Positions 27,730-64,000 of a stretch of 64,000 nt of DNA are shown here, piece after piece. A model generated the notes under the pieces. The model was given only the letters and a program-made list of their open reading frames with translations, made no database searches and was not told the DNA's origin. Location of the stretch: the NCBI GenBank assembly GCA_016209225.1, contig JACQWO010000003.1, positions 13,298 to 77,297 on the forward strand. Reading direction: 5' to 3'. Made by a program: the position numbers and the translations under genes. Position 1 is the stretch's first letter, and the number at the start of each line of letters is the position of its first letter. This DNA comes from Desulfobacterales bacterium. GTDB taxonomy: Bacteria; Desulfobacterota; UBA8473.

Positions 27730-27740
27730 TTATAAAGAGG

Positions 27741-27762: not shown

Positions 27763-27842
27763 TTGTCAGAGCTCAGGAAAATACTTTAGCCTGCCTGACA
27801 CCCGATCCCTGACCCCTGTGAACTTTACAAAGAGGTTGTGCT

Positions 27843-29220: not shown

Positions 29221-29235
29221 GGTAACTACTTAGGT

Positions 29236-29400
29236 GGATAGGCTGTAGGCAGTTAGCCTGTAGGAAAAAATAGGAAATTGCATTTGAGTTGGATGTTCCC
29301 TAATGCGATTAGAAAATGGTGGAGACCGAGAAGGTTCTGAGCGCCTTGATTCGGTCAATGCATGACTAACAGCCTTCAGGCTTCAGCCTAAACAACCTGA
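29236..29400 (+). promoter_or_regulatory. second copy of the AGCCT/AGGCT array, split by an approximately 100 bp insertion, upstream of the flxB-like gene
   Basis: GGATAGGCTGTAGGCAGTTAGCCTGTAGG at 29236-29264 and TAACAGCCTTCAGGCTTCAGCCTAAACAACCTG at 29368-29400 align to 24003-24055. The array ends 25 nt before the ATG. Confidence 0.4.
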
Positions 29401-29425
29401 GTAGTTACAAATAAGAGAGATAACT

Positions 29426-30439: not shown

Positions 30440-30455
30440 GAGCTTTAGTTTAACG

Positions 30456-30501
30456 TCTCGGAATTTCTATCCCGATAAAATTGGGGCCTGAAATTCCGAG
30501 A
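30456..30501 (+). other. 12 bp perfect-stem hairpin (TCTCGGAATTTC...GAAATTCCGAGA) between the flxB-like and flxA-like genes
   Basis: No T-run follows it, so it is probably an intra-operon RNA structure rather than a terminator. Confidence 0.4.
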
Positions 30502-30604
30502 TAATTCAGAATTCAGGAGTCAGAATCCAGAAGAAAAGCGTATTCTTAGAGGGGAACTATAGTCCATGATGGTTGCGGTTGAAAAGGATAAAGGAGATTC
30601 GTTG

Positions 30605-33579: not shown

Positions 33580-34281
33580 ATGAGGGTTATTGCCCTGATC
33601 CCCGCTGCTGGTGTGGGGAAAAGGATGGGTACAAGTATTAATAAGCCGTTTCTTCATATAGGCAATAAACCAGTCTTAGCTCAAACCCTTTTAAGGTTCC
33701 AAGATTCAACAAGTATCAGTGAAGTTTATGTTATTGTCTCCAAAAAAGACGAAATACGTTGCAGAGAAAATATAATAAAGCAGTACAATTTAAAAAAAGT
33801 TACTAAGATAGTTATAGGTGGTATTGAGAGACACGATTCTGTTAAGAACGGCCTGGATGCAATCGAATCGAAGTGTGATATAGTGATGATACACGATGGC
33901 ATTCGCCCATTTATTACCACTCAACTAATAGATAAATCCATATCAAAGACCCTCAAATATGATGCATCTGTAGTTGCCATTCCAATAAAAGAAACAGTTA
34001 AAGCCATTTCTCCTAATGGAGAAATAATAGAAACATTGGATAGGAATAAGCTCTGGCTTGCCCAGACTCCTCAGACTTTTAAGTATGACATTATAAAAAG
34101 GGCTTACGAAAATGCCTTTGAAAAAAATATCTGCTGTACTGACGATTCATCCTTGGTAGAGCTTTTAGGAGTACAGGTTAAAATCATAATGGGTTCTTAT
34201 GAGAACATCAAAATTACAACGCCGGAGGATTTGACTATAGCCGAGGCTTTTTTAAAAAATCAAGAAACTTTAGGCACTTAA
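33580..34281 (+). CDS. ispD: 2-C-methyl-D-erythritol 4-phosphate cytidylyltransferase
   Basis: IPAAGVGKRMG matches the IspD N-terminal motif. Confidence 0.9.
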   Translation: MRVIALIPAAGVGKRMGTSINKPFLHIGNKPVLAQTLLRFQDSTSISEVYVIVSKKDEIRCRENIIKQYNLKKVTKIVIGGIERHDSVKNGLDAIESKCDIVMIHDGIRPFITTQLIDKSISKTLKYDASVVAIPIKETVKAISPNGEIIETLDRNKLWLAQTPQTFKYDIIKRAYENAFEKNICCTDDSSLVELLGVQVKIIMGSYENIKITTPEDLTIAEAFLKNQETLGT

Positions 34282-34302: not shown

Positions 34303-34782
34303 ATGAAAGTAGGTTTTGGTTATGATGTTCATCAATTGGTAGAGGGCAGGAAACTCATATTGGGCGGTGTAGAGATACCTTATAAAGAAGGGTTGATGGG
34401 ACATTCTGACGGCGATGTTCTTCTTCATGCTATTTGTGATGCTTTACTGGGGGCTATCGGAGCGGGTGATCTGGGTAAACATTTTCCTGAAAACGATCTG
34501 AAATCTAAAGGCATATCCAGCTTAGAATTACTGCAGGTAGTGAAAATTTTAAAAGAAGATAGAGGATTCAGGACAAACAACATTGATTGTACCGTAGTAG
34601 CCCAGAATCCCAAGTTGGCTGAATACATACCCAGGATGGAGAAAAGTATTGCCGGGGTTTTAGGTATCGATGCCAAAAAAGTTAATGTAAAGGCTACTAC
34701 CACAGAGGGATTGGGCTTCACTGGTAAGGGAGAGGGGATAGCTGCCTATGCAGTGGTCTCGGTTAGGTCCATCGAGTTTTAG
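34303..34782 (+). CDS. ispF: 2-C-methyl-D-erythritol 2,4-cyclodiphosphate synthase
   Basis: The conserved IspF motifs GYDVH and HSDGDV are present. Confidence 0.95.
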   Translation: MKVGFGYDVHQLVEGRKLILGGVEIPYKEGLMGHSDGDVLLHAICDALLGAIGAGDLGKHFPENDLKSKGISSLELLQVVKILKEDRGFRTNNIDCTVVAQNPKLAEYIPRMEKSIAGVLGIDAKKVNVKATTTEGLGFTGKGEGIAAYAVVSVRSIEF

Positions 34783-48073: not shown

Positions 48074-48583
48074 TCATTTTTTCTCCACTCCAAAATGCCT
48101 TTCCCATTCATCCAAAAGCTGATGCTCTTTTGGACATTCCAGATAGTTTTCTATTCTTCCTATATTAAAATCCCCCAAGGTTTCCACTCCAAAATTTCTA
48201 CTCCAGAGCTTTTTAATTTTGTGTTGTTTTTGAATATCTTTATATCTGCCCATGATCAAGAACGATGTCCTCTCCCTTATATCCTTAACTACATTAGGTA
48301 TGAAATGTGTGGGCTTGGTGCCCAGAATCAGATGGGTATGATTTGGGTGAATAACCAAACCGAAAAGCTCATATCCCTTTGTGGTGGTAACCTCTTTAAA
48401 GATTGCCTCCAATTCTCTTGATATTTCATGGGTAATTATTGGCAGATATCTGGGGGTAAAAAGGATTAGGTGGTAATAGATTCTGTAAACGACGTTTAAA
48501 GATTTCTCCCAATGAATCTCTCTTACGGGCTGGAAATAGGACGACAGGATAGTGTTTATCATAATCTCCTCGCAAAAGATCAA
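48074..48583 (-). mobile_element. tnpA: IS200/IS605-family element: Y1 HuH transposase TnpA
   Basis: HuH reads HPNHTHLIL, the N-terminal beta-strand YHLILFTPRY is present, and the C-terminus reads LWSRNFGVETLG...ENYLE. The gene sits 18 nt after the pyrF stop. Confidence 0.75.
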
Positions 48584-50421: not shown

Positions 50422-51459
50422 TCAAGGGAAGGGAGTAAGGTTATCTATCCCTGAATCTTCAGAGAGTCCACACATAATATTCATATTTTGAACCGCCTGA
50501 CCTGAAGCACCCTTAACAAGATTGTCTATTACCGATATTACTATTATCCTTTTCGTTCTTGGATCGAATTGGATACCTATATCACAGAAATTGGTGCCTT
50601 TTACAAAGGATATATTGGGAAAGTTACCTTCGGGATATATCCTGACAAATCTCTCTTTCTGATAGAAGTCTGTGTATATCCTTATCAGCTCTGATGTCGA
50701 GATATCTTTAAGAGATTTTGAATATATAGTACTCAGTATACCTCTGTTTGTTGGTATCAAATGCGGGGTAAAAGAGATAATTATTTCTTCACCAGCAAGG
50801 AGGCTTAACTCCTGTTCCATTTCAGGGGTATGCCTGTGCTGTCCTATCTTATATGCCTTAAGCCCTTCATTAACTTCACAGAAAAGATATTCCGTTGACG
50901 CTTCCCGGCCTGCTCCTGAGGCACCTGACTTAGAGTCCACAACTATGCTCTTTAAATCTATCATCTCGTTCTTCAGTAAAGGAGCCAGGCCAAGTATGAC
51001 ACTGGTTGGATAACAGCCTGGATTGGCAACCAGTGTTGCCTTTCTTATTTCAGCCCTGTAGAATTCAGGGAGACCATAGACGGCATCCTTCAAGAGACTT
51101 GGAAAGGTGTGTTTACAATACCACCTTTCATAAACCTCATGATCATTAAAACGGTAATCTGCACTCAAGTCTACTATTTTTTTCCCCTTCTCAATGAATT
51201 GGGGAACTATATCCATGGCTACCTTATGGGGTAAGCACGAAAATACGAAATCCGAAAGATCACAGATTGCTTCTGTAGATGGGTGAATGAATTTAATATC
51301 CATCTCTCCTGTAAAGACTGGGAAAGCCTCTGACAGCCTAGCTCCATTAAACCTTCTCGATGTCAATGCAGTGATTTCCACACCGGGATGTCTGAGCAGA
51401 AGTCTGATCAATTCCTGACCGGTATATCCACTGGCACCTATTACAGCAACTCTTAGCAT
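50422..51459 (-). CDS. argC: N-acetyl-gamma-glutamyl-phosphate reductase
   Basis: MLRVAVIGASGYTGQEL and a catalytic Cys region identify ArgC. The internal Met start has a GGAGAG ribosome-binding site; the ORF-track start is 60 nt too long. Confidence 0.9.
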   Translation of the reverse strand: MLRVAVIGASGYTGQELIRLLLRHPGVEITALTSRRFNGARLSEAFPVFTGEMDIKFIHPSTEAICDLSDFVFSCLPHKVAMDIVPQFIEKGKKIVDLSADYRFNDHEVYERWYCKHTFPSLLKDAVYGLPEFYRAEIRKATLVANPGCYPTSVILGLAPLLKNEMIDLKSIVVDSKSGASGAGREASTEYLFCEVNEGLKAYKIGQHRHTPEMEQELSLLAGEEIIISFTPHLIPTNRGILSTIYSKSLKDISTSELIRIYTDFYQKERFVRIYPEGNFPNISFVKGTNFCDIGIQFDPRTKRIIVISVIDNLVKGASGQAVQNMNIMCGLSEDSGIDNLTPFP

Positions 51460-51522
51460 CTTTCTTTCTCTCCAACAAAAAAAGGAAGGCCAGAGGGGCC
51501 TTCCTTTTGGCGCAGCCAAACT

Positions 51523-51915
51523 CTATCTTTTTGAGTACTGGTATTTCGCTCTGGCTCCTTTTTGCCCGTATTTTTTTCGTTCTTTGACCCTAGAATCCCT
51601 GGTAATAAACCCAGCTTTTTTTAAGACAGAACGAAAATCACCGTTTATCTCCAATAATGCCTTTGTAATACCGTGTCTTATTGCTCCAGCCTGCCCGGAG
51701 ATTCCCCCGCCATGAACATTGGCAAGGACATCATACTTCCCTGCTGTATCGGTAAATTCAAATGGTTGTTGTATAATCATCTTCAAGATTTCACGTTTAA
51801 AGTATTCATCAAGGGATTTATTGTTAATCTTAAATTCACCACTACCTGATCTCAACCAAACCCTGGCAATGGATGTCTTTCTCTTGCCTGTTGCGTAGAA
51901 CCTATCTTCTGCCAT
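51523..51915 (-). CDS. rpsI: 30S ribosomal protein S9
   Basis: 130 aa ORF with the C-terminus ...KYQYSKR. Confidence 0.95.
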
Positions 51916-51981: not shown

Positions 51982-52410
51982 TTAAATAGTTAATATTTCA
52001 GGGTTCTGAGCCTGGTGAGGATGTTCTTCTCCGGCGTATACCTTTAGTTTCTTAATCATATTTCTGCCAAGGCTATTCTTTGGCAGCATACCTTTGACAA
52101 CCAGACTTATAAGGTCTTCGGGTTTTTTTTGTTGTAACTTTTCTGCAGTAGTCGATTTAAGTCCACCAGGATATCCGCTGTGGCGATAATAAACCTTTTG
52201 TTTCAGCTTCTTGCCTGTTAGGAGAACCTTTTCTGCATTTATTACAATTACAAAATCGCCAGTATCTACATGGGGAGTATAGATAGGGTTGTGCTTGCCT
52301 CTCAATCTCACAGCGATTTCACTTGCCATTCTCCCAAGTATTTTTCCATTGGCATCTATTAGGTACCATTTTCTTTCAACTTCACTCTTCTTAGCACTGA
52401 AAGTCTTCAT
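51982..52410 (-). CDS. rplM: 50S ribosomal protein L13
   Basis: [20 protein letters not shown] matches the canonical L13 N-terminus, which begins at the internal Met. Confidence 0.95.
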
Positions 52411-52479
52411 TGTATGCTCCACACTTAAGATAATAAGTTTCATAACTTAATATATTCCCTCACTTTTGTCAAGAAAAAT

Positions 52480-53177: not shown

Positions 53178-54836
53178 TCAATTTATTAATTTATAGACTA
53201 AGACATAACTCTTGTCACCTTTAAAGATTGAGCCAATAGAGGTTTGGATAATTCCAACCACTAATTCATCTTTTCCGTCGTTATCTACATCCTTAATTTG
53301 AAAGTCCGCAATATACCCATAAATCTTTTTTGTTCTCCAATTCTCTGATAAACCCAGACCATCCCAGGTTAGACTATAAATTTCGCTGTCTTTATACATT
53401 CTAGTTCTTTCAAATAACTTTCCAGCACCTGGAATATTTCTTACAACAACTACTTCATTTTCTCCTTTATGATTTTGAACCAGTATCCGATTTTGAAGGT
53501 ACAATCTAGTTTCAAGCCCTTCAGTGGCATCAGTTGGCTTTGTACCGCTTAGATACTTAGTTAAAAAGTTCTTTGTCCCTCCATATATTTCATCACTCTT
53601 CCACATTAACTCTCCGCTATTAGAAAAAACCTTCAAGTTGTCATAATTATCGATCAGAACAATCTCCTTTTTTCCGTCTTTATCAACATCAATCAAGTTG
53701 AAACCATACACTATGGCACCCGGGGGGAGGGAAATATTTTGTTCTTCCATGTATTTGTTGTCTTTCCATATCAGTTGAGTTACACCACCGTAAAAAATAC
53801 CATCCAGCCCTACCTTTTGGCCAAGAAGCATGGAACCATTTTTGGACGTCTCAATCACCTTAAAAAAATAGTTGATGCCTGTTGCAATCTTTACAAAATC
53901 TCCTTTTTGGAACTCTATAACAAAGGAGTCCAGTCTGGTATCGACAAGGTTGGTTACAAAGATCTCTGAAATTCCATTTTTATTAATATCGGCAACATCA
54001 ATGGATAGATAGTTATCAGATTTCTTTCCTTTAATCTTTTTTATCAATGTCAGCCTATCTTCTGAGTATCTATATATCGATATGCTGTTATTGTCCATAA
54101 CAACCGTTTCATTCTTTCCATCCCCATCCACATCTCCAACAGCAATACCTTTAATCTCCAGGTCCAGTCTTTGACTCTTCCAAAATCCCTTCTTGAGACG
54201 CAGAGGATCACCAGACATTACAAACTCAGAACCGGTATCGGAAGAAGTGCCTTTCCCCTTTTTAGAAACAAGAAATTCTGACATAAAAGCAGATGCCTCT
54301 GCACTGGCAGTAGGAGGTGGAGGAGAAGATGAATAGACAGGATAAGGTTTACCTGTAATCCTGGAATTGGCCTTCAAAGCAAACTCACTGATTTCAGGAA
54401 TTACATTATCCAGTCCTTTGCTTGTGGCGAATAGAGACGTAACAGACTTTTTCTCCTTCAGGTCAAACATCTTGGCATCAATACTAACACTCTCACCTAT
54501 CTTAGTCAGGCTGCCCGAAATAATAAAATCCACACCAAGCTGAGTGCCGATCTTCTTTATTACTTCTTCAGTTATGGGACTCTCGTGAATTCGAGACAGG
54601 ACTTCATTTACTTGTATACCCTCAAGAACTACAACCTTATCCTCTACAGAAATCCTGGATGTAAGCATATCCAGGATCCCCTTCTTCAGATAATCCAAAT
54701 TTTCTGAGCTGTTTATCTGGAATGGAAGCACAGCTACCTTCACTATGTTATCAGCATAAGTGATTGAGTGAAATATAAAGAGATATAATAGGATTAAGGA
54801 AGATAGTTTAATAAATTTTAGAGTCACCTTCTTCAT
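53178..54836 (-). CDS. exported FG-GAP repeat protein
   Basis: A signal peptide plus repeated DVDGDGKNE, DVDKDGKKE and DVDNDGKDE calcium-binding FG-GAP motifs. Confidence 0.7.
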   Translation of the reverse strand: MKKVTLKFIKLSSLILLYLFIFHSITYADNIVKVAVLPFQINSSENLDYLKKGILDMLTSRISVEDKVVVLEGIQVNEVLSRIHESPITEEVIKKIGTQLGVDFIISGSLTKIGESVSIDAKMFDLKEKKSVTSLFATSKGLDNVIPEISEFALKANSRITGKPYPVYSSSPPPPTASAEASAFMSEFLVSKKGKGTSSDTGSEFVMSGDPLRLKKGFWKSQRLDLEIKGIAVGDVDGDGKNETVVMDNNSISIYRYSEDRLTLIKKIKGKKSDNYLSIDVADINKNGISEIFVTNLVDTRLDSFVIEFQKGDFVKIATGINYFFKVIETSKNGSMLLGQKVGLDGIFYGGVTQLIWKDNKYMEEQNISLPPGAIVYGFNLIDVDKDGKKEIVLIDNYDNLKVFSNSGELMWKSDEIYGGTKNFLTKYLSGTKPTDATEGLETRLYLQNRILVQNHKGENEVVVVRNIPGAGKLFERTRMYKDSEIYSLTWDGLGLSENWRTKKIYGYIADFQIKDVDNDGKDELVVGIIQTSIGSIFKGDKSYVLVYKLIN

Positions 54837-54848: not shown

Positions 54849-55250
54849 CTATTTCTCGCTTATCTCTATTAATACTCCAAAAGTTGATTTGGGGTGCAAA
54901 AAGGCTATCTTTGCCCCTCCTGCTCCCCTTCGGGGAGTTTCGTCAATCAGCTTCACACCCTTTTCTTTTAGCTCTCTCAATGCCTCTTCAATGTTTTCTA
55001 CTTGAAAGCAGATATGCTGAATCCCCTCTCCTCTCTTTTCGATAAACTTAGCTATAGCTCCCTCTGGAGACGTGGATTCCAACAACTCCAGTTCACTGTC
55101 TCCTATTGGTAGAAATACGGTAGTAGCCTTTTGCTCTTCCACGGTTTCTGATCCAACAGACTTCATGCCCAGTATATCTTCATAGAACTTCAAAGCCGGA
55201 GCACAGCTTTTTACTGCTATACCGATATGATCAATCTTCTTTATCTTCAT
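54849..55250 (-). CDS. mce: methylmalonyl-CoA epimerase (VOC/glyoxalase family)
   Basis: MKIKKIDHIGIAV...HICFQV identifies the family. The start is at the internal Met. Confidence 0.8.
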   Translation of the reverse strand: MKIKKIDHIGIAVKSCAPALKFYEDILGMKSVGSETVEEQKATTVFLPIGDSELELLESTSPEGAIAKFIEKRGEGIQHICFQVENIEEALRELKEKGVKLIDETPRRGAGGAKIAFLHPKSTFGVLIEISEK

Positions 55251-55354
55251 TTGTTCTCCCTTTTCACTTCGTGAGCATTCACCTATCACCCGTCAGCTTT
55301 CAGCAAAAAAACAAATCCTTTAACCTTTCACCTTTTGCCTTGTTTATTATAACA

Positions 55355-56320
55355 CTATACATTGGCGTTCTTTGATATCCTTTTGGCTATCGTCTCTACT
55401 GTCTTTTTTGTTAATAGATATGGATCTTCCTTTTTGTTTACGATATCCTCCAGGCGCTGTTCAAAAAAATCCTTATTTTCTGCTATTAAACCATCAAGAT
55501 ACCGGTATATTTCGTGTTCGATCATCTTAATTATTTCGCATCGGATCCTTTCTTTCCGTCGGCAAGCCAGCATACCGCTTTTAATCAAAAAATCTCTATG
55601 TTCATTAATCTTTTCAACAAGGGTGCCGATACCCTGATCCTCTGTTGCCACAGTCTTAATGATGGGAGGGGTCCATTCTCTCTCAACTGAACTCAGTCCT
55701 AACATCATCTTAATCTCTGTAACCAGTCTGTCAGCGCCATCCCTATCAGCCTTATTTACTACAAATATATCTCCAATCTCCATAATGCCGGCCTTTATTG
55801 CCTGGATATCATCGCCTCCACCTGGCATTACAACGAGAATCGAAACATCAGCAGTTCTAACAATGTCCACCTCGTCTTGCCCAACCCCTACAGTCTCAAT
55901 TATAATATAATCCTTACCATAGGCATCGAGGATCTTTACCGTGTCCGATGTTGCCCTGGAGAGACCACCCAGACTTCCTCTGGTAGCCATGCTGCGAATG
56001 AAAACATCCTCATCACTACTTACTCCCTGCATCCTTACCCTATCACCTAACAATGCCCCACCGGTAAACGGACTTGTTGGATCAATAGCTATAATTCCCA
56101 CAGTATGGTTCTGACGCCTAAGCTCTTTTGTAATCCTATCAGTCAGCGTGCTTTTGCCTGCTCCAGGAGGTCCGGTAATACCAATTATATAGGCATTGCC
56201 AGTAAGAGGATATATCTTTTCCATTGCCTCAATCCCACCAGGCATCTCGTTTTCCACTAAGGTAATGAGCTTGGCTAATGCCCTAACCGACCCCTTACGT
56301 ACCTCATCAACCAATTCCAT
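55355..56320 (-). CDS. meaB: methylmalonyl-CoA mutase-associated GTPase MeaB/ArgK
   Basis: The P-loop GITGPPGAGKST, the internal Walker B-like motif ILVVMPGGGDD, and NKAD. Confidence 0.9.
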   Translation of the reverse strand: MELVDEVRKGSVRALAKLITLVENEMPGGIEAMEKIYPLTGNAYIIGITGPPGAGKSTLTDRITKELRRQNHTVGIIAIDPTSPFTGGALLGDRVRMQGVSSDEDVFIRSMATRGSLGGLSRATSDTVKILDAYGKDYIIIETVGVGQDEVDIVRTADVSILVVMPGGGDDIQAIKAGIMEIGDIFVVNKADRDGADRLVTEIKMMLGLSSVEREWTPPIIKTVATEDQGIGTLVEKINEHRDFLIKSGMLACRRKERIRCEIIKMIEHEIYRYLDGLIAENKDFFEQRLEDIVNKKEDPYLLTKKTVETIAKRISKNANV

Positions 56321-56359: not shown

Positions 56360-56782
56360 TTATACCTGAGACAGGCTCTCTCTAATGTAGTTTATTAGTG
56401 TTTGAGAAGACATACCAGGCCCAAAAATCTCAGAGATTCCGAGTTTTTTTAACTCAGGAACGTCGTCTTCCGGGATAATGCCCCCCCCTAAAACCAATAT
56501 ATCACCTAGACCCTTTTTTTTCAAGAGTTCCATTATCCTCGGAAACAAAAAACCATGGGCTCCTGAGAGGATACTCAACAAAATGGTATCTACATCCTCC
56601 TGAAGAGCTGCATCAACAATCTGTTCCGGGGTTTGACGAATCCCTGTGTAAATAACCTCCATCCCTGAATCTCTTAAAGCCCGAGCGATAACCTTAGCGC
56701 CTCTATCATGGCCATCCAACCCGGGTTTGGCCACCAAAACCCTAATCCTTCTATCCTGATTCATCCAGGTCCTCCTTCCCAA
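56360..56782 (-). CDS. acyl-CoA mutase B12-binding small subunit
   Basis: A cobalamin-binding DxHxxG motif ([10 protein letters not shown]) in a 140 aa ORF. Confidence 0.85.
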
Positions 56783-56815: not shown

Positions 56816-58471
56816 TCATATTACCGAGGTTCCCTCATATTCACCAAAGACTTCTCGGAGCACATCACATGTCTCACCCAATGTTGCATAGGCTTTAACC
56901 GCCTCGATTATCGGAGGCATTAAATTGGCATACCCTTCAGCAGTCTTTCTTAATGCTAAGAGAGTGGATTGAACCTTTTGATTATCCCTATCTGTTTTAA
57001 GTTCTTTGAGCTTTTTTATCTGAATAGCTCCAACCTCAGTATCAACCTTTAGCAAACCTTTGGGAAGTGGTTCCTCTACCTGGTAACTATTCATCCCTAC
57101 CACCACTTTTCCTCCAGACTCCACTTCTTTTTGATAGCGGTACGCACTCTCTTGAATCTCCTGTTGAATATAGCCCTTTTCTATAGCAACAGCAGCTCCT
57201 CCTAATTCGTCTATCCTCTCAATATAGTCGGTTATCTTCTCCTCCATCTTTTTTGTCAGACTCTCTATATAGAAAGAACCGCCCATTGGATCCACTGTGT
57301 CGGTAACCCCGATCTCATGGGCTATTATCTGCTGGGTTCTCAAAGAAAGACGTACTGATTCCTCTGTTGGCAGTGCTAAGGCTTCATCAAAGGAGCATGA
57401 AGCCAAGGATTGAGCGCCTCCCAATATCGCTGCCAGGGTCTGGAATGCTACCCTTACAACATTGTTGAGTGGTTGTTGGGCAGTTAGTGCACTGCCGGCT
57501 GTCTGGGTATGAAACCGAAACATCCATGATCTGGGGTCAGAAGCCCCAAATCTTTCCTTCATAATCTTTGCCCATAGCCTTCTGGCAGCCCTATATTTGG
57601 CTATCTCCTCAAAGAAGTTATTATGAGTATTAAATATCCAGGAAATTCTTGGAGCGAAGTCATCTACCCTCAACCCAGCCTTTATCCCCGCATTTACATA
57701 CTCAATAGCATCTGCAAAGGTGAAGGCTATCTCCTGTACTGCCGTGGCACCGGCCTCCCTCATATGATAGCCTGCTATATTTATAGTATTCCATTTAGGT
57801 ACATGTTTTGAGCAGTACTCAAATATATCGGTAATCAACCTTAGGGACGGACCCACCGGAAATATATATGTTCCTCTGACCGTATACTCCTTTAATATAT
57901 CGTTTTGAATCGTGCCGTTCAGCTTCTCAGGGCCTATCCCCTGTTTCTCTGCAACTGCTAAATACATTGCCAGGAGTATGGCGGCCGGGGCATTAATAGT
58001 CATAGACGTACTCAATTTATCCAAAGGGAGTCCGTTGAAAATCGTTTCCATATCAGCAAGGGAATCAACTGCTACCCCTACCTTTCCTACCTCACCCTGG
58101 GAAAGAGGATGATCCGAATCATAGCCAATCTGGGTAGGCAGATCGAATGCCACACTCAGTCCTGTTTGTCCCTGTTCAAGGAGATACTTATATCGTTTAT
58201 TGGTTTCGTCTGCTGTTCCATACCCGGAATACTGTCTCATTGTCCACAGCTTTCCAAGATACATTGATGGATGGGGAGCTCTAGTAAAAGGATATTCACC
58301 CGGGAAGCCTATCTCTTCAAGATAATTGATATCTTTGGTGTCATCCACAGTATAAAGGGGCTTAATCTCCATACCCCAATCCGTCTCAACCTTCCTGAAG
58401 GTATGCTTTCCCATGCAATCTTTGTTCCACCTTTTTGTTTCTTCTTGTATCTTTTCTATATCCTCTTCCAA
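56816..58471 (-). CDS. methylmalonyl-CoA mutase family large catalytic subunit (split-type)
   Basis: 551 aa ORF with a TIM-barrel substrate-binding domain. The split architecture is typical of archaeal MCM and of IcmA/IcmB. Confidence 0.85.
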
Positions 58472-58536
58472 TGCTAAATCCTCCCACGAGGGCTTCTATA
58501 CTCAAAAAATTGACCGTCGGTCTTTCTGTGCCTTCA

Positions 58537-58767
58537 TTACCCTATTACAGCAATAACCGTATCCGCCTGAACCGTCTGCCCCACTGATACATTTAATTCT
58601 TTTATTGTGCCAGACACAGGAGCAACCACTGGAATTTCCATCTTCATTGCCTCCAATAATGCCATCTGACTGTTCTCTTCTACCTTATCTCCAACTTTTA
58701 CATCTACTGCTACTATCTTTCCCACCATGGGAACCACTACTGGTGTTCCTTTAGATTCATCAGCCAC
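58537..58767 (-). CDS. biotin carboxyl carrier protein (biotinyl domain)
   Basis: 76 aa ORF with the EAMKME biotinyl-lysine motif. Confidence 0.75.
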   Translation of the reverse strand: MADESKGTPVVVPMVGKIVAVDVKVGDKVEENSQMALLEAMKMEIPVVAPVSGTIKELNVSVGQTVQADTVIAVIG

Positions 58768-58810
58768 TTGAGTTTTACCTCCTTCTTTTAATTACGCTTC
58801 TATTAATCTC

Positions 58811-59593
58811 TCACCTTCCCACAAACTTGGGAGCCCTCTTTTCAACGAATGCTGTCATCCCTTCTTTCTGATCAGCGGTTGAAAAGGCAACTCCCATTGC
58901 ATCGATGTCTCTGTATACCCCATCCGGATCAGGAGAATCCTGAGCTTCATTAAGGGCTTGTTTAGCCAGCTTTAAAGTAATCCCACTCTTTGATGCAATA
59001 TTACGGGCCAAGGACTTAACCTCATCCAAAAACTTATCTGCAGGGAAGACCCTGTTTGCCAATCCAATATCTTGGGCGGTCTTTGCATCAATAGGGTCTC
59101 CAACGAAGACCAACTCTTTCGCCATCCTCATCCCAACAGCTCGGGCTAAACGATACATTCCCCCCGCGCCAGGAAACACCCCTATTTTTATTTCAGGGAC
59201 ACCAAATTTTGCTTTTTCTGATGCAACTATAAAGTCACAGGCCAAAGCCAGTTCACACCCCCCTCCAAAGGCAATTCCGTTTACTGCGGCTATCACTGGC
59301 TTAGGCATTCTCCCAATGGCCTCAAATGAATCGAACAATGCCCTGGCCCATTCTCTGGCTTCACAGGAGTTAGCATCTTTAAGTTCTTTTATGTCTGCGC
59401 CAGCGGCAAATGCCCTTCCCTGACCGGTTACAATAATAACCCTCACTTCATCGTCTTCCCTTAAGATTTCTGCTGCTTTTCTCAGGTCTCTACCCACTTC
59501 GGCATTGAGGGCATTCAACGCATCAGGCCTATTCAGGGTTATAACTGCTAGTCCGCCCTCATCTTTTGAAACTATTATGTTCTTATATTCCAT
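58811..59593 (-). CDS. enoyl-CoA hydratase/isomerase (crotonase)
   Basis: GQGRAFAAGADI and AAVNGIAFGGGCELALACD match the crotonase fold. Confidence 0.9.
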   Translation of the reverse strand: MEYKNIIVSKDEGGLAVITLNRPDALNALNAEVGRDLRKAAEILREDDEVRVIIVTGQGRAFAAGADIKELKDANSCEAREWARALFDSFEAIGRMPKPVIAAVNGIAFGGGCELALACDFIVASEKAKFGVPEIKIGVFPGAGGMYRLARAVGMRMAKELVFVGDPIDAKTAQDIGLANRVFPADKFLDEVKSLARNIASKSGITLKLAKQALNEAQDSPDPDGVYRDIDAMGVAFSTADQKEGMTAFVEKRAPKFVGR

Positions 59594-59788: not shown

Positions 59789-60931
59789 TTAAACGCCCAG
59801 TTCTCTAGCTATGACAATCTGCTGAATCTCTGAAGTCCCTTCAGTAATGGTTAGAAGTCTTGCATCCCGCCAATGGCGCTGAACAGGATATTCCATTATA
59901 TATCCATATCCACCATGTATCTGCATGGCTTCACTGGTAACCCTTTGAGCCACCTCACTCGCGTAGAGTTTTACCATTGAGGCCTCTTTCATACAGTCTT
60001 TCCCCTGATCAAACAACCAGGATGCCCTATATGTCAACCACCTGGCAGCCTCAATCTCCATCGCCATCCTGGCCAGTTTGAATTTGGTTACCTGAAAATC
60101 CTTTATGGGTTTGCCAAATTGAACCCTTTCACCAGCATATCGAATGGATGCATCCAAGGCCGCCCTTGCTACCCCGATACACCTTCCACCATAGGAAATC
60201 CTTCCACTCTTGAGGGTGGCTATCAGGTAGGGGAACCCCTTCCCTTCCTCTCCCACCAACTTATCTTGTGGAACCCTGCAGTCTTCGAAGAGCAACTCTG
60301 CAGTGTCAGCCGAACGGTTCCCTACTTTCTTCAACTTTCTGGTAACAGAATAACCAGGGGTGCCTTTATCCACGATGAGTATGCTTACTCCGCCTTTGGA
60401 ACCCTTGCTTTTGTCAGTGTATGCAGCCACACAGATATAATCGGCAATACTTCCATTGGTGATGAATATCTTCCTGCCATTTATCACATAATGATCCCCA
60501 TCCTTTACTGCCGTTGTCTGTATTGACGCTGCATCAGAACCAGCATTGGGTTCTGTGAGGCCAAAGGCTGATATCCTCTCACCTTTAATGGCCGGGACAA
60601 GGTACTCCTGTTTCTGTTCCTCTGTCCCATGCTCAAGAATCATGGACGTACCAAGGCTAGATTGGACAAGAAGTCCGGAACCTATCCCAGAGCACACCCG
60701 CATAAGCTCTTCTATGTAGATATTTTCAGTGAGCTTATCTGTCCCTGCAGCGCCGTACTTTTCAGGATACCTGACACATAGGAAACCCAGCTTTCCAGCC
60801 TTGGGAATTATCTCCACAGGATAGACCTCTGTCTCTTCTGCCTCTTCAACCAGTGGTCCTATCTCATTTTCAGCGAAGTTTTTTATTGCCTCCCTAAATA
60901 TCCTTTGCTCCTCTGTAAACTCAAAATCCAT
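59789..60931 (-). CDS. acyl-CoA dehydrogenase
   Basis: 380 aa ORF (MDFEFTEEQ...EGTSEIQ). The ribosome-binding site is AAGGAGGGG. Confidence 0.9.
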   Translation of the reverse strand: MDFEFTEEQRIFREAIKNFAENEIGPLVEEAEETEVYPVEIIPKAGKLGFLCVRYPEKYGAAGTDKLTENIYIEELMRVCSGIGSGLLVQSSLGTSMILEHGTEEQKQEYLVPAIKGERISAFGLTEPNAGSDAASIQTTAVKDGDHYVINGRKIFITNGSIADYICVAAYTDKSKGSKGGVSILIVDKGTPGYSVTRKLKKVGNRSADTAELLFEDCRVPQDKLVGEEGKGFPYLIATLKSGRISYGGRCIGVARAALDASIRYAGERVQFGKPIKDFQVTKFKLARMAMEIEAARWLTYRASWLFDQGKDCMKEASMVKLYASEVAQRVTSEAMQIHGGYGYIMEYPVQRHWRDARLLTITEGTSEIQQIVIARELGV

Positions 60932-61019: not shown

Positions 61020-62201
61020 CTAACCGAGATCATTGCCATATAACATTACACAGGATACAGAAGGATGTCCCCCAAGGGTATGAGCCAATCCAATTTCAGC
61101 ATTTTTAACCTGGCGCTTATCCCCTTTCCCCTGTAACTGTTTGTATATCTCATAGCTCATCCGGAGTCCACTTGCCCCAACAGGGTGACCAAAACACTTG
61201 AGCCCACCATCAGTATTGACAGGAAGCTCCCCATCAAGAGCAAAAGTTCCGGCATCGATATCCTCTTTTGCCTTCCCTTTGGGGCTAAACCCCAGATCTT
61301 CATAAATAATAAGCTCAGTAATAGTAAAACAATCATGAACTACAGCAAGGTCTATCTCCTTGCGAGGGTTTTTAATACCTGCCTGCTCGTATGCCTGTTT
61401 GGCTGCTATTTGAGTCACTTCAAAACCTGTCCAATCAAACCCTGGCTGGAAATGAGGCATCATGCTATTTTGAGAAAGTCCTATCCCTTTTATATAGATA
61501 GGATCATCCCTGAACTTCTTAGCCAGGTCAGCCCTGGTAATAATCGCCACAGCAGCGCCATCGCTGTTACCGCAGCAATCAAACAATCCAAGGGGCCAGG
61601 CAATAATAGGAGCTTTTACGGCTTGCTCCAGGGTAATCTCCCTCTGAAAATGGGCCTTTGGATGCATACTCCCGTTTTTGTGATTCTTGACTGCGATCTT
61701 GGCTATAGTTTCTTTGCCTTCCTCTGGACTAAGACCATAGGCATGAAAATACCTGGTAGCAATAAAGGCAAAACTACTGGGGGCTGTTCTCCGCATCTCC
61801 ATCACAGGATGCATCCCCCGCCCAACTCCCAACCCTGGAAAACCTGTATCCTTGAGTTTTTCAAAACCAACGGCGATGGCAATATCATACATGCCGCATG
61901 CCACAGCAAAAGAGGCATTCCTCAGTGCCTCATGCCCGGTGGCACACCAGTTCTCCACTCTGGTTATGGGTATCCCCTGAAGTTTGAGGGGGTCGGCCAA
62001 AGCAAGGCCTCCCATCCCTATCCAATGGGCACCGACTGTTCCAAGCCAGGCAGCCTGAATATCCTTAGGATCGATACCCGCATCCTCATATGCCTCATAA
62101 GCCGCCTCTATTATCATATCTTCAGGGCCTTTATTCCAGTTTTCACCAAACTTACAACACCCCATCCCGATTATGGCAATCTTATCCTTGATACTTTCCA
62201 T
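61020..62201 (-). CDS. thiolase (SCP-x / archaeal-type acetyl-CoA acetyltransferase, the partner of DUF35 proteins)
   Basis: IAIIGMGCCKFGE carries the active-site Cys. The C-terminal motifs GHPVGASG and the Cys and His residues are present. Confidence 0.85.
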   Translation of the reverse strand: MESIKDKIAIIGMGCCKFGENWNKGPEDMIIEAAYEAYEDAGIDPKDIQAAWLGTVGAHWIGMGGLALADPLKLQGIPITRVENWCATGHEALRNASFAVACGMYDIAIAVGFEKLKDTGFPGLGVGRGMHPVMEMRRTAPSSFAFIATRYFHAYGLSPEEGKETIAKIAVKNHKNGSMHPKAHFQREITLEQAVKAPIIAWPLGLFDCCGNSDGAAVAIITRADLAKKFRDDPIYIKGIGLSQNSMMPHFQPGFDWTGFEVTQIAAKQAYEQAGIKNPRKEIDLAVVHDCFTITELIIYEDLGFSPKGKAKEDIDAGTFALDGELPVNTDGGLKCFGHPVGASGLRMSYEIYKQLQGKGDKRQVKNAEIGLAHTLGGHPSVSCVMLYGNDLG

Positions 62202-62213
62202 TTTGTTCCCTCC

Positions 62214-63629
62214 TTATCTTGCCGGCCTGCACTTCCAGAAATAGTTATAAAAACCCCCTTCTCTGTGAAATCTTCTGAAAGTCATCTCCACTGGCAAACC
62301 TACCTTAACCTCTTTTGGATTACAGTCGGTCATCAGGCAATAGATTCTTGCCCCCCCTTCCTCTGATTCGACAATTGTCTGAACTGTTGGAGGATCTACA
62401 CCACCAGCAAGGTTATCCAAAGAATAGGTAAACACCTTCCCCTTCTTATCAGAAAGTCTCACCTCTTCAAACTCATCCCGAGAATGACACCCAAAACACA
62501 CCCTCTGAATTGGGAAAGAAACAAGCCCACAGTGTTTGCATTTGCTCCCGTGGCAGCGTAAGACCCACTTTTGGGTTCTCCACATTACCGATGCTGAGGG
62601 GAAAAGCTTTATAAACTCCTCTGGCAGGGATACAAGCTGCCGATAAGCAAGGTATTTTTCGTAACTAGACAACATCATCTTCAATCCCACACCCCTTTTG
62701 ACCCCTCGCTTGTTTTTTGCTTTTTCAATTGCATCCGTTACCTGTATAACAAAAGCATCGCTTCCATCTCCATAGCTAGCCAGGAGAATCCTATCACCGG
62801 GTTTTGCCTCTTCCAGGGCTGAAACGAGAAGAACCAAAGGCTGCGCACTCCCAACATTTCCAACGGTCGTAATTAAAGGATCCTGAAGCTGGGTCTTGGG
62901 ATCAAAACCCAGGCTCTTTGCCAAATCTATATGACTTCGGGCATCAGGGGTGTACATCACCACTTTGGTAAAATCCTTCGGCGTCAACCCACTTTTCTTC
63001 ATGATCCCAGAGATTGCCGCCTTCATATTCTTTGTGTAACCATTAATCAATACCCAACGATCTTCCCATGAACGGACAAAAGTATCCTGATCTGTTCTCC
63101 AAACATCGGTAATATCATCAGACACGGAGTAAACATCTTCTATAGTGGCTATAACATCTGAATCTCCCAGAAGAAGGGCTGCTGCACCATCTCCAAAGGT
63201 CTGCTCATCAACAGAACGAGGAGTCCCAAGCCTGCAGTCAGCGGCAGTTACCATGATACTCTTTGCTTCACCACTTTTGATGGTATTGAGCGCCGTTCTC
63301 ACCGCAGAAGTCCCTGCCCGAAGAGAGTTAGCAAAATCACTCGTCCAGATTTCCTTGTTTAAATCGGCAACGGTAGCCACTATGGACGAGCATGCCTTCT
63401 CCTTATACGGCGAAGTTGTTGAGGCAAAGAACAACCCTTCAACCTCTTGGCGATCTTCTCCATTTAAACAGTTTATAGCGGCCTCTACAGCCATAGTCAG
63501 GCTATCCTCATCATAATTGGCAACGCTCCTTTCGCCACCTATGGAACGGGTGCCCCATGCATTACCGATCATATCTCTATTCATTCTAGAGATGGGTATA
63601 TACGCCCCGTATGATTTGATTCCAACCAT
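62214..63629 (-). CDS. HMG-CoA synthase-like condensing enzyme fused to a C-terminal DUF35 (zinc-ribbon + OB-fold) domain
   Basis: The N-terminus MVGIKSYGAYIPISR resembles archaeal HMGCS. The C-terminal 125 aa carry CxxC...CxxC (CHGSKCKHCG...CFGCHS) and an OB fold. Confidence 0.75.
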   Translation of the reverse strand: MVGIKSYGAYIPISRMNRDMIGNAWGTRSIGGERSVANYDEDSLTMAVEAAINCLNGEDRQEVEGLFFASTTSPYKEKACSSIVATVADLNKEIWTSDFANSLRAGTSAVRTALNTIKSGEAKSIMVTAADCRLGTPRSVDEQTFGDGAAALLLGDSDVIATIEDVYSVSDDITDVWRTDQDTFVRSWEDRWVLINGYTKNMKAAISGIMKKSGLTPKDFTKVVMYTPDARSHIDLAKSLGFDPKTQLQDPLITTVGNVGSAQPLVLLVSALEEAKPGDRILLASYGDGSDAFVIQVTDAIEKAKNKRGVKRGVGLKMMLSSYEKYLAYRQLVSLPEEFIKLFPSASVMWRTQKWVLRCHGSKCKHCGLVSFPIQRVCFGCHSRDEFEEVRLSDKKGKVFTYSLDNLAGGVDPPTVQTIVESEEGGARIYCLMTDCNPKEVKVGLPVEMTFRRFHREGGFYNYFWKCRPAR

Positions 63630-63735
63630 AATTACCTCCTTAACCTAAAAAACATAAATAAAAAGCTTTCGTATCTCTTAAAATTAAAAAAAATAAAGAG
63701 AACCCTTTATAAACGGCAAGATTAAAGAAAAAATC

Positions 63736-63753
63736 TGAATGAACATTCATTCA
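63736..63753. promoter_or_regulatory. palindrome TGAATGAA-CA-TTCATTCA overlapping a minus-strand candidate promoter (-10 at 63755-63760, -35 at 63778-63783)
   Basis: Perfect 8 bp arms. It sits immediately downstream of TAATTT/TTGACA hexamers on the minus strand, about 110 nt upstream of the HMGCS-DUF35 start. Confidence 0.35.
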
Positions 63754-63905
63754 AAAATTACCACACACATCGAAGGTTGTCAAGATTTTTATCGTCTCTT
63801 ACCCTCTTAATAGATACGATATATTGGCCTTTCAATGTACGCTTTTTTACAACTGGGGCAACGACTAGGAGGGGTGAATCCATCACCGATGAGTGGTCAT
63901 ACACC

Positions 63906-64000
63906 TCACGATCCACCATAGCCTATCTTTACTCTTTCACCTTCCACTATAACCGGCACTTCCCGCACTCCATTGGAAACCTTGAGCATTTCCTTAAGTT
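63906..64000 (-). CDS. partial 3' end of a glutaredoxin-like gene, truncated by the window edge
   Basis: The C-terminus ...GVREVPVIVEGERVKIGYGGS* resembles the glutaredoxin VP.I..G..IGG region. Confidence 0.35.
   Translation of the reverse strand, partial: LKEMLKVSNGVREVPVIVEGERVKIGYGGS

Follow-up and report, generated by a model that had tools for sequence, protein, structure and literature searches.

A fused HMG-CoA synthase-like–DUF35 protein and its partner thiolase, encoded in a beta-oxidation and methylmalonyl-CoA operon of a Desulfobacterales bacterium, most likely form a fatty-acid-degrading thiolase complex

Two adjacent minus-strand genes in the window (the whole stretch of 64,000 nucleotides that was analysed) most likely encode a thiolase complex that degrades fatty acids and belongs to a bacterial type described recently, and not a mevalonate-pathway enzyme. 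The upstream gene (62214..63629) encodes a protein of 471 aa, beginning MVGIKSYGAYIP, in which an archaeal HMG-CoA synthase (HMGCS, HMGS)-like domain is fused to a DUF35 module; the downstream gene (61020..62201), 12 nt away according to the ORF coordinates, encodes an SCP-x/archaeal-type thiolase of 393 aa. The best explanation, to which we assign a probability of about 0.7, is that the pair forms a heteromeric 3-ketoacyl-CoA thiolase of degradative function, in which one subunit is a non-catalytic scaffold, encoded in an operon for acyl-CoA beta-oxidation. The architecture, a tetrad-less HMGS-DUF35 fusion with an intact ACAT, is already known: PMC12960953 describes the same class and reports assays of it. 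New in the window, compared with the published class, is the genomic context, a conserved operon behind a FadR-box-like operator.

The fusion is borne out by domain searches. Residues 1–335 (nt 62625-63629, minus strand) form a thiolase-fold domain resembling archaeal HMGCS and PhlA (Pfam, NCBIfam), residues 336–355 a poorly conserved linker, and residues 356–471 (nt 62214-62564, minus strand) the DUF35 module of a four-cysteine zinc ribbon and an OB fold (Pfam). The archaeal-type HMGCS model NF003274 (NCBIfam) matches residues 1–333 with 248.3 bits against a cut-off of 244; zf-ChsH2 (PF12172, residues 361–385) and OB_ChsH2_C (PF01796, residues 390–452) both score above the Pfam gathering threshold, and the zinc-ribbon cysteines C364, C367, C378, and C381 are invariant in 28 aligned homologues. 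Of the Pfam families that the preliminary description of this DNA had expected, those for DUF35 (PF12172/PF01796) are thus present, but the HMG_CoA_synt families (PF08540/PF01154) are not matched; the N-terminal domain hits ACP_syn_III_C instead (34.8 bits). Taken formally this is a KAS-III/FabH score, which had been named as evidence against an HMGCS-like domain, yet it is uninformative because ACP_syn_III_C is the best Pfam match of a genuine archaeal HMGS (6esq_I), too. By structure the domain groups with archaeal HMGS, PhlA, and MucA: with an AF2 monomer model of the 471-aa protein (pLDDT 84.9), the top Foldseek matches were the HMGS-like subunits of these three solved complexes (TM 0.82–0.88), with TM 0.88 to 6esq_I and 0.84–0.85 to PhlA. 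By sequence, the best PDB matches of the domain are PhlA (5m3k_A, 149.6 bits) and archaeal HMGS (6esq_I, 139.7 bits), and the DUF35 module matches the archaeal DUF35 protein (6esq_E) with 64 bits. A FabH/KAS III identity was considered and rejected, with leucine at the cysteine position and TIGR00747 at 48 bits against a cut-off of 292.

The catalytic residues of this domain are lost. Aligned to HMGS of M. thermolithotrophicus as reference, the tetrad E82/C114/H238/N270 reads T71/L103/Y226/N258 in the 471-aa protein, asparagine alone being kept. Among the 120 closest homologues the glutamate position is occupied by threonine (117) or serine (3) and the cysteine position by leucine (116), isoleucine (3), or proline (1), with neither glutamate nor cysteine in any of them (0/120 each); the same two residues are missing from three aligned distant full-length fusions of about 33% identity, from Azoarcus, Rhodococcus, and Variovorax. 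Because glutamate, cysteine, and histidine of the tetrad are gone, the domain cannot be an HMG-CoA synthase, and this half of the protein is, as judged from the alignment, catalytically dead. Two components of the archaeal channelling complex had been said to be fused here; the fusion stands, the active HMGCS component does not. In the close-family alignment, motifs specific to the family (D175-x-W177-R178 ... W188-E189-x-R191) are invariant in the dead domain; they are kept in slightly relaxed form in the 33%-identical relatives, are missing from archaeal HMGS and PhlA, and map to the only segment of the domain that is disordered in the monomer model; the terminal Y-F-W-K of the scaffold is counted among the family-specific motifs as well.

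The thiolase, in contrast to this dead domain, appears from its sequence to be an intact catalytic subunit of the active type. It passes NF004810 (NCBIfam; 547 bits, cut-off 403), in agreement with the SCP-x type first assigned to it, and has Cys86 in WCATG, His289-Asp-Cys291-Phe292 (HDCF), and Gly338-His339-Pro (GHP); C86, HDCF, and GH are kept in 80/80 partner thiolases examined. Its best solved relative is the thiolase of the archaeal complex (6esq_A, 220 bits), with 160.8 bits to the BbsAB structure (7pxp_C) and 119–125 bits to PhlC. Thiolases are reversible enzymes, and the archaeal relatives run in the condensing direction.

The gene pair heads an operon on the minus strand, whose further members, listed in the preliminary description, were all confirmed: a short-chain/butyryl-CoA (Bcd)-type acyl-CoA dehydrogenase (ACAD) of 380 aa (59789..60931; Pfam, PDB), with C. 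difficile Bcd (5ol2_C, 388 bits), 4l1f, and 1buc as best PDB matches and no NCBIfam equivalog at cut-off; a short-chain enoyl-CoA hydratase (crotonase, ECH) of 260 aa (58811..59593; ECH_1, 244.8 bits), with PRK05809 (short-chain enoyl-CoA hydratase) as best NCBIfam model at 285 bits, below the cut-off of 394; a free-standing biotinyl carrier protein of 76 aa with an EAMKM motif (58537..58767), best model NF004547 at 65 bits, below the cut-off of 75; a split methylmalonyl-CoA mutase, with a catalytic subunit of 551 aa (56816..58471; PF01642, 750 bits; TIGR00641, 784 bits) and a B12-binding subunit of 140 aa (56360..56782; PF02310, 86 bits); the mutase-associated GTPase MeaB of 321 aa (55355..56320; PF03308, 319 bits); and methylmalonyl-CoA epimerase of 146 aa (54849..55289; TIGR03081, 160.7 bits, cut-off 115). 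The beta-oxidation set is incomplete in the window: neither in the operon nor among scanned window ORFs of at least 140 aa did a gene for a 3-hydroxyacyl-CoA dehydrogenase turn up. Etf genes also lie within the window. So do ispD (33580-34281) and ispF (34303-34782), as reported earlier, and since these encode enzymes of the MEP pathway, a mevalonate role for the pair is not supported.

Upstream of the fusion gene, whose ribosome-binding site AAGGAGG was read from the sequence at 63641-63635 (minus strand), lies a putative promoter (63755..63783, minus strand) consisting of TTGACA (63783-63778), a 17-nt spacer ending in TGG, and TAATTT (63760-63755). It was left unlisted by a consensus scan because the -10 hexamer fits at just 3/6 positions; the region is conserved in the loci of relatives L006, L007, and L009. 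A perfect 18-bp palindrome, TGAATGA-N4-TCATTCA (63736..63753), begins 1 nt past the -10-like hexamer and 107 nt upstream of the fusion start codon, overlapping the predicted transcription start. It is the sole exact match within the window and is found upstream of the fusion gene in 10/10 close-relative loci, with invariant half-sites and a variable central 4 nt; when up to two mismatches were allowed, 1.0 Mb of fetched loci held 11 matches, 10 of them these upstream sites. The box of the TetR-family regulator FadR (YsiA) of B. subtilis is WTGAATGAMTANTCATTCAN (PMC5397183); the window site, TTGAATGAATGTTCATTCAG, fits the Bacillus box at 19/20 positions. The palindrome is probably the operator of a TetR-type FadR-like regulator. 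A search for a TetR-family regulator gene in the window and, for L006, over the 8 kb upstream gave none, so this assignment is based on likeness to a box from Firmicutes.

Pairing of the two genes is conserved. Of 85 related loci, which span Desulfobacteria, Dehalococcoidia/Chloroflexota, Spirochaetota, and Latescibacterota, 82 have a same-strand thiolase gene downstream of the fusion gene, the remaining three contigs being cut short; this gene directly adjoins the fusion gene in most loci, with a hydratase gene inserted between them in a subgroup of Dehalococcoidia. The same operon was found in relatives at 81–96% identity. Within the fetched flanks, ACAD and/or ECH homologues occur in 51/85 loci, although both are large paralogous families in these phyla and part of this association could be due to chance; a mutase homologue occurs in 18/85, 10 of these outside the close clade. 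Values of dN/dS are 0.07–0.23 for the HMGCS-like N-domain, 0.03–0.04 for DUF35, and 0.025–0.056 for the thiolase, a pattern consistent with a constrained but non-catalytic N-domain. Copies from Azoarcus, Rhodococcus, and Variovorax adjoin genes of beta-oxidation type (MaoC, SDR, ACAD, ECH, CoA-transferase, and Etf) in varying combinations, and two family members are Rosetta-stone fusions, one with an SDR plus SCP2 domain behind the DUF35 module and another with two SCP2 domains. The window pair is carried by an uncultured Desulfobacteria lineage, its close relatives are MAGs from tar biofilm and groundwater, and the copies from cultured organisms belong to degraders of hydrocarbons and xenobiotics, in which they are located on catabolic megaplasmids. 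Several sources label the homologues hydroxymethylglutaryl-CoA synthase, a frequent misannotation of the fused HMGS-DUF35 family.

In the proposed mechanism the 393-aa thiolase would be the only catalytic subunit, with Cys86 as acyl-accepting nucleophile assisted by His289/Cys291 of HDCF and His339 of GHP. The HMGCS-like domain, devoid of the Glu/Cys/His required for Claisen condensation but with its thiolase fold retained, would act as non-catalytic scaffold, and the fused zinc-ribbon/OB module as the clamp that, in the solved archaeal, PhlACB, and MucABC complexes, holds thiolase and HMGS-like dimer together and contributes to a shared CoA-binding chamber. By analogy with relatives, the scaffold is presumed necessary to hold the thiolase soluble and in the right shape, because their lone thiolase subunits are insoluble and, where assayable, inactive; MucB alone, for instance, is both (PMC12960953). 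The operon would be repressed by the TetR-type FadR-like regulator, with relief by acyl-CoA, and would serve to break down short, odd-chain, or 2-methyl-branched acyl-CoA by beta-oxidation; acetyl-CoA and propionyl-CoA would be the products of the thiolase step, the latter being converted to succinyl-CoA via the methylmalonyl-CoA route. The earlier suggestion of a role in acyl-CoA thiolysis or condensation instead of mevalonate synthesis holds. A purely scaffolding role leaves the invariant motifs of the dead domain unexplained. These motifs and the natural SDR and SCP2 fusions bear on a further possibility, which we regard as unlikely, that the dead HMGS-like–DUF35 protein is a hub docking the enzymes of the preceding beta-oxidation steps onto the thiolase, or that the tunnel of its former active site, now lined by these motifs, has acquired a new ligand-binding or catalytic role. 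If the hub were real, a pseudoenzyme would be the core of a metabolon for beta-oxidation in bacteria, with the CoA-bound intermediate passed through the shared CoA chamber.

The complex could instead condense, in reverse beta-oxidation or ACP-independent fatty-acid synthesis of archaeal style, with acetyl-CoA (or propionyl-CoA supplied by the mutase branch) added by the thiolase to an acyl-CoA while the scaffold passes the 3-oxoacyl-CoA onward. The nearest solved thiolase, 6esq_A, is indeed a condensing enzyme; KT/DUF35 pairs of S. acidocaldarius drive condensation and recruit the downstream enzymes (bioRxiv 10.1101/2024.07.05.601840), a recruiting role that SDR-fused family members would fit, and the Bcd-type ACAD and Etf encoded in the window are reversible in anaerobes. 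The complex of P. fluorescens, however, with the same architecture, made no HMG-CoA, formed no acetoacetyl-CoA from acetyl-CoA, and only cleaved acetoacetyl-CoA, an activity abolished by H294Y in its HDxF motif (PMC12960953); the HMGS whose activity provides the pull in the archaeal complex is dead here, the operator resembles the repressor box of fatty-acid degradation, and a reductase or dehydratase of the (R)-specific synthetic type is missing from the operon. On balance we consider condensation improbable. Degradation of a more unusual CoA ester by a BbsAB-like thiolase, alkyl- or aryl-succinate-derived, alicyclic, or dicarboxylic, in anaerobic hydrocarbon degradation, with the mutase and biotin protein serving carbon-skeleton rearrangement and decarboxylation instead of propionyl-CoA assimilation, is likewise rather doubtful. 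It would draw on the partnership of SCP-x thiolase and DUF35 common to BbsAB (7pxp_C), on the recurrence of mutase-like genes near members, some just 42–43% identical to the window mutase (L013, L027, L046), and on the tar-biofilm, groundwater, and megaplasmid settings of relatives. Membership of the BbsAB type, to which the pair had been likened, is nevertheless contradicted by the models for BbsA (NF053627, 28 bits against 250) and BbsB (NF053628, 168 against 750); mutase, MeaB, and epimerase have the scores of proteins from an ordinary methylmalonyl-CoA pathway, the epimerase above the TIGR03081 cut-off, ACAD and crotonase are nearest to short-chain enzymes, and neither glycyl-radical synthase nor bbs-like or bss genes were found in the window.

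With PhlA as the top PDB sequence match of the N-terminal domain and the tetrad missing as in PhlA and MucA, the complex might be a Friedel-Crafts C-acyltransferase of the PhlACB/MucABC type, serving secondary metabolism by acetylation of a small-molecule acceptor; but PhlC and MucB have lost HDxF and have a remodelled acceptor pocket (PMC12960953), while HDCF is intact here and in all partners examined, the thiolase is far nearer to archaeal ACAT than to PhlC, and scanned window ORFs of at least 140 aa showed no PKS or NRPS domain, which makes this very unlikely. That the protein is a true HMG-CoA synthase joined to its DUF35 partner and supplying mevalonate synthesis or another pathway would agree with the NF003274 score, 4 bits above cut-off, and with the name given to homologues, but is hardly credible with Cys replaced by Leu, Glu by Thr, and His by Tyr and with ispD and ispF in the window; the archaeal complex with the corresponding four residues mutated (mut4) is inactive and the fusion of P. 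fluorescens makes no HMG-CoA (PMC12960953).

[quoted passage not shown] The sole biochemistry for this class is that of the P. fluorescens protein, and its likeness to the window pair is judged by described features: HMGS and DUF35 in one polypeptide, loss of the tetrad, an adjoining thiolase with Cys/HDxF/GHx, and the absence of PKS/NRPS neighbours. The window copy differs in that it comes from uncultured anaerobic Desulfobacteria (other proteobacterial fusions being about 33% identical over their full length), keeps the asparagine of the tetrad, and sits in an ACAD/crotonase/methylmalonyl-CoA operon behind a FadR-box-like operator. With the archaeal thiolase/HMGCS/DUF35 complex it shares the fold of all three components (220 bits for the thiolase; 139.7 bits and TM 0.88 for the HMGS-like domain; 64 bits for DUF35), the thiolase Cys/HDxF/GHx, a DUF35 zinc-ribbon/OB protein, and adjacency of the genes; unlike in that mevalonate complex, the HMGS module is dead and fused to DUF35, and the reaction likely runs towards thiolysis instead of condensation coupled to channelling.

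PhlACB (P. protegens, 5M3K/5MG5) and MucABC (S. macacae, 9VBO/9VBT) likewise have a tetrad-less structural HMGS-like subunit in a tripartite complex with DUF35. In contrast to the window pair, their PhlC/MucB lack HDxF and transfer acetyl groups to small-molecule acceptors, PhlA and MucA are not fused to PhlB and MucC but separate from them, and their genes lie in PKS (type III) or NRPS-PKS clusters, whereas the neighbours in the window are beta-oxidation and methylmalonyl-CoA genes. BbsAB (G. metallireducens, 7PXP) also combines an SCP-x-type thiolase with HDxF and a DUF35 zinc-finger subunit on which the thiolase depends, and belongs to a modified beta-oxidation pathway of an anaerobic organism (benzoylsuccinyl-CoA); it is without an HMGS-like module, and the window is without bbs or bss genes. 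In KT/DUF35 of S. acidocaldarius, finally, the thiolase is soluble and active only with DUF35, which serves as assembly hub (bioRxiv 10.1101/2024.07.05.601840); that system differs from the window pair in being archaeal and synthetic, in having no HMGS-like module, and in recruiting an NADPH reductase and a MaoC dehydratase.

The gene pair was recovered on the minus strand as the preliminary description had it, with an ORF of 471 aa (62214..63629; the fusion) and, 12 nt downstream, an ORF of 393 aa (61020..62201; the thiolase). A thiolase-fold domain forms the N-terminal part of the fusion, ahead of a DUF35 module (zf-ChsH2, 361-385; OB_ChsH2_C, 390-452; according to Pfam). Residues 1-333 match the NCBIfam model for archaeal-type HMG-CoA synthase (NF003274) at 248.3 bits, only 4 bits above the cut-off of 244, and the proposed HMGCS::DUF35 fusion holds as an architecture. 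The 393-aa protein scores 547 bits against NF004810 (cut-off 403) and is thus an SCP-x/archaeal-type thiolase, as had been suggested. Among solved structures, its top relative is 6esq_A of the Methanothermococcus thiolase/HMGCS/DUF35 complex (220 bits); the C-terminal part of the fusion matches the archaeal DUF35 protein 6esq_E (64 bits), and the N-terminal domain scores similarly against PhlA (5m3k_A, 149.6 bits) and archaeal HMGS (6esq_I, 139.7 bits). The AlphaFold monomer model of the fusion (pLDDT 84.9, pTM 0.87) is nearest in fold to archaeal HMGS within the complex (TM 0.88), followed by PhlA (0.84-0.85) and MucA (0.82-0.84), with FabH (~0.78) and stand-alone bacterial HMGS (~0.72) ranked lower.

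The catalytic tetrad of archaeal HMGS consists of E82/C114/H238/N270, and the quadruple mutant is inactive (PMC12960953). The corresponding positions in the fusion are T71/L103/Y226/N258 (MAFFT alignment). Among the best 120 homologues, the Glu position is occupied by Thr (117/120) or Ser (3/120), the Cys position by Leu (116/120), Ile (3/120) or Pro (1/120), and none of the 120 has His at the His position. Glu, Cys and His are likewise missing in the ~33%-identical full-length fusions of Azoarcus sp. KH32C, Rhodococcus sp. DK17, and Variovorax paradoxus. Judged by these residues, the HMGCS-like domain is catalytically dead. The preliminary observation was confirmed and its interpretation supported only in part. 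On defining features, the fusion was rejected as a true HMGCS and as a member of FabH, of the PhlACB-type acyltransferases, and of BbsAB. The comparison of FabH with HMGCS scores for the N-terminal domain had been set beforehand as a refuting test, and the Pfam match was indeed of the FabH type. ACP_syn_III_C is likewise the top Pfam match of genuine archaeal HMGS, so this comparison is uninformative and was dropped as an argument against HMGS ancestry.

Ratios of dN/dS against relatives were 0.07-0.23 for the dead N-terminal domain, 0.03-0.04 for the DUF35 module and 0.025-0.056 for the thiolase; the dead domain is looser than its catalytic partner, yet clearly under purifying selection. The fusion is a clear case of a pseudoenzyme kept by purifying selection as obligate partner of a former pathway neighbour. 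Family-specific residues D175, W177, R178, F184, V185, W188, E189, and R191 are invariant in the dead domain, as is the C-terminal YFWK of the fusion, and the relaxed motif D-x-[WF]-R ... W-E-[DEN]-R-[WF] is kept in the 33%-identical proteobacterial and actinobacterial fusions. By sequence comparison, these motifs are missing from archaeal HMGS and PhlA. The stretch of the N-terminal domain that the monomer model leaves unplaced (pLDDT <50) coincides exactly with residues 172-193, which suggests a contact element for a partner or ligand and allows for the dead domain having a more active part than that of a simple scaffold.

The thiolase has its motifs intact (Cys86 in WCATG; His289-Asp-Cys-Phe292; Gly338-His339-Pro), and each of the 80 extractable partner thiolases keeps the Cys, HDCF, and GH positions. 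A same-strand thiolase gene follows the fusion gene in 82 of the 85 fetched loci, the remaining three contigs ending too early; the fusion stop and thiolase start are ~10-30 nt apart in most of the 85, and an enoyl-CoA hydratase gene sits between the two in a Dehalococcoidia subgroup. A single scan of species-representative genomes yielded confirmed relatives in at least 575 contigs, each database search returned >6,500 sequences, and the family comprises 669 clusters at 50% identity (E 1e-30 or better). Among the matches listed, the nearest is a Desulfobacteria MAG (96% identity), followed by Deltaproteobacteria and Thermodesulfobacteriota MAGs (81-94%) and by Dehalococcoidia/Chloroflexota, Spirochaetota, and Latescibacterota relatives (53-66%). 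For the assembly look-up, P0008, P0003, and P0049, all close homologues, stood in for the window protein. A homologue search seeded with the Azoarcus fusion gave no Pseudomonas among its best 120 matches; Aromatoleum, Azoarcus, and Variovorax were present. Two divergent fusion and thiolase pairs occur in each of two genomes, MAG CSMAG_2901 (loci L010/L083) and MAG UBA2777 (L014/L059), with copies in one example 84% and 53% identical to the window protein; such duplicates suggest paralogous complexes with different substrates. A 723-aa homologue (P0170; HMGS-like, ATP-grasp, and molybdopterin-binding) was excluded as an apparent chimeric gene call.

The pair heads a conserved operon, and all genes named in the preliminary description were located: acyl-CoA dehydrogenase (ACAD; 59789-60931), crotonase (58811-59593), a 76-aa biotinyl carrier (58537-58767), mutase large subunit (56816-58471), B12-binding subunit (56360-56782), MeaB (55355-56320), and methylmalonyl-CoA epimerase (54849-55289); ispD (33580-34281) and ispF (34303-34782), also named there, are present. 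The ACAD is closest to butyryl-CoA/short-chain dehydrogenases (5ol2_C, 388 bits), and the crotonase to a short-chain enoyl-CoA hydratase model, below its cut-off. No 3-hydroxyacyl-CoA dehydrogenase gene was found in the operon or among the scanned window ORFs. In 81-96% relatives the gene order is fusion, thiolase, ACAD, crotonase, biotin protein(s), split mutase, MeaB, and epimerase; in distant relatives only the two-gene core is constant. Homologues of the ACAD and/or crotonase lie within the fetched flanks of 51/85 loci, and mutase homologues occur in 18/85, 10 of them outside the close clade. The Azoarcus, Rhodococcus, and Variovorax pairs adjoin varying combinations of beta-oxidation-type genes (MaoC hydratases, SDRs, ACADs, crotonases, CoA-transferases, Etf). 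Between crotonase and biotin carrier (window 58472-58810 compared with loci L001, 14856-17395, and L002, 6378-8891), the 81-85% relatives carry a 64-aa ORF and a 640-aa 5S-transcarboxylase/OadA-like gene (domains HMGL-like, PYC_OADA, biotinyl), and the window and its 94-96% relatives (L006, L009) only the 76-aa carrier; the carboxyltransferase gene was either lost from the operon in the window's clade or never there.

Several other genes of the window were recorded. A 552-aa FG-GAP-repeat protein without NCBIfam match (53178-54836, minus strand), odd company for a metabolic operon, is encoded 12 nt past the epimerase gene, between the acyl-CoA operon and rplM/rpsI (51982-52443, 51523-51915) and argC (50422-51519). 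At the other window end lies a Bcd/Etf-type module (371-3301, plus strand) in which a second ACAD gene (371-1537) is directly followed by EtfB (1530-2327) and EtfA (2324-3301). An iron-sulfur/flavoprotein gene run (24095-31441, plus strand) resembles the Hdr/Flox-type electron-transfer clusters typical of sulfate reducers. Its products include a 4Fe-4S dicluster protein, a CCG-domain (HdrB-like) protein, MvhD/FlpD (27843-28280), a DHOD-B-type FAD/NAD/FeS protein, and additional Fer4 proteins; its FAD/NAD-binding and ferredoxin-domain ORFs (25720-26340, 26356-27729) possibly represent a single HdrA-like gene that is split or frameshifted. An AMP-forming acyl-CoA ligase (21118-22665, minus strand) overlaps the end of cysS; its best model is a long-chain-fatty-acid--CoA ligase subfamily, below cut-off, and it may provide the activating step of the fatty-acid pathway. 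The guanylate kinase/YicC region and the gene of an HD-domain protein flank that of a 169-aa IS200-type Y1 transposase (48074-48583, minus strand). Upstream of the operon, a gene running off the window end (63906-64000, minus strand; product ending in VREVPVIVEGERVKIGYGGS), also present in loci L007 and L009, looks by eye to encode a small glutaredoxin-like protein.

Upstream of the fusion gene lies a promoter-like site (TTGACA, a 17-nt spacer ending TGG, TAATTT), which a simple sigma-70 scan did not report and which is based on the perfect -35, the spacer length, the TG motif, and conservation. One base after TAATTT follows the perfect palindrome TGAATGAATGTTCATTCA (63753-63736, coding strand). 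It agrees at 19/20 positions with the box of the B. subtilis TetR-family FadR (YsiA), WTGAATGAMTANTCATTCAN (PMC5397183). The window holds no other exact match to the palindrome. Each of the 10 close-relative loci has it ahead of the fusion gene, the half-sites never changing and the central tetranucleotide varying; across 1.0 Mb of fetched DNA, these make up 10 of only 11 matches with <=2 mismatches. No TetR regulator turned up in the window or in the 8 kb upstream in L006. A second FadR-like palindrome (TGAATGAATGTTCATTTT, 23929-23946, between a radical SAM gene and the Hdr-like cluster) was rejected as an operator because it has 2 mismatches and is within chance expectation, two or more such matches arising in 7/100 shuffles. 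In L006, a 96%-identical Desulfobacteria MAG locus, the 5' untranslated region between operator and ribosome-binding site (~7680-7975; window 63630-63700) holds an insertion of ~250 nt, flanked by a repeated TTTTAGGTTAAGGAGGTAATT-like stretch, which looks like a small inserted element or duplication.

The most likely mechanism, to which we assign a probability of about 0.7, is a heteromeric degradative 3-ketoacyl-CoA thiolase completing the beta-oxidation of short, odd-chain or 2-methyl-branched acyl-CoA. The two proteins would form a physical complex in which the thiolase subunit does the chemistry, in the thiolytic direction, and the dead HMGS-like::DUF35 subunit supplies a dimeric platform and a zinc-ribbon/OB clamp; by analogy with the solved archaeal, PhlACB, and MucABC assemblies, the dead subunit probably also contributes half of a shared CoA-binding chamber. 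Propionyl-CoA would be converted to succinyl-CoA through the co-transcribed methylmalonyl-CoA pathway genes, and the operon would be under acyl-CoA-responsive repression, presumably by a FadR-like regulator.

A condensing role in reverse beta-oxidation, for which the analogy with archaeal KT/DUF35 speaks, appears unlikely. Slightly less credence is given to a specialised BbsAB-like thiolase for unusual CoA esters, against which both the BbsA and BbsB model scores and the ordinary methylmalonyl-CoA pathway genes speak. Friedel-Crafts acyltransfer is highly improbable given the intact HDxF motif, and true HMG-CoA synthase activity, with both Cys and Glu missing, is the least probable reading of all.

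The conserved operon and the fatty-acid-type operator give the fused class, which published work left without a physiological role, a concrete, testable hypothesis: in anaerobes, it would act as a 3-ketoacyl-CoA thiolase for short, odd-chain or branched-chain substrates and supply the methylmalonyl-CoA pathway. The main practical value lies both in this hypothesis and in caution against HMG-CoA synthase labels across a very large family. Database names of its members vary (HMG-CoA synthase, KAS III, OB-fold protein, zinc-ribbon protein), and with the marginal HMGCS-model pass such names can lead reconstructions from Desulfobacterota/Chloroflexota MAGs to infer a mevalonate step wrongly; Thr/Leu for Glu/Cys is the residue check that tells the dead scaffold from true HMGS.

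The fused HMGS-DUF35 and ACAT (thiolase) architecture is already in the literature. Mining found HMGS, ACAT, and DUF35 genes co-localised at 1,030 bacterial loci, of which 1,001 lacked PKS or NRPS neighbours (Nat Commun 2026;17:2196, PMC12960953). The P. fluorescens representative, a distant relative of the window pair and the source of the only biochemistry on this class, has a fused HMGS-DUF35 without the tetrad and an ACAT with Cys, HDxF, and GHx; its complex formed neither HMG-CoA nor acetoacetyl-CoA from acetyl-CoA and cleaved acetoacetyl-CoA, an activity nearly abolished by H294Y in HDxF (PMC12960953). MucB, the thiolase-like subunit of MucABC, is insoluble alone and inactive even if solubilised, and the archaeal thiolase is also insoluble alone (PMC12960953). 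In the authors' view, the fused class is an intermediate stage of evolution that no defined pathway has yet recruited (PMC12960953). The oestrogen-degradation proteins of PMC8913865 were set aside as MaoC-DUF35 (ChsH2-like), a different architecture. Two natural fusions in the family, P0204 (911 aa; HMGS-like, DUF35, SDR, SCP2) and P0218 (722 aa; HMGS-like, DUF35, two SCP2 domains), have domain sets that echo peroxisomal MFE-2 and SCPx. The window pair is a new, distant member of this recently described kind of bacterial thiolase complex.
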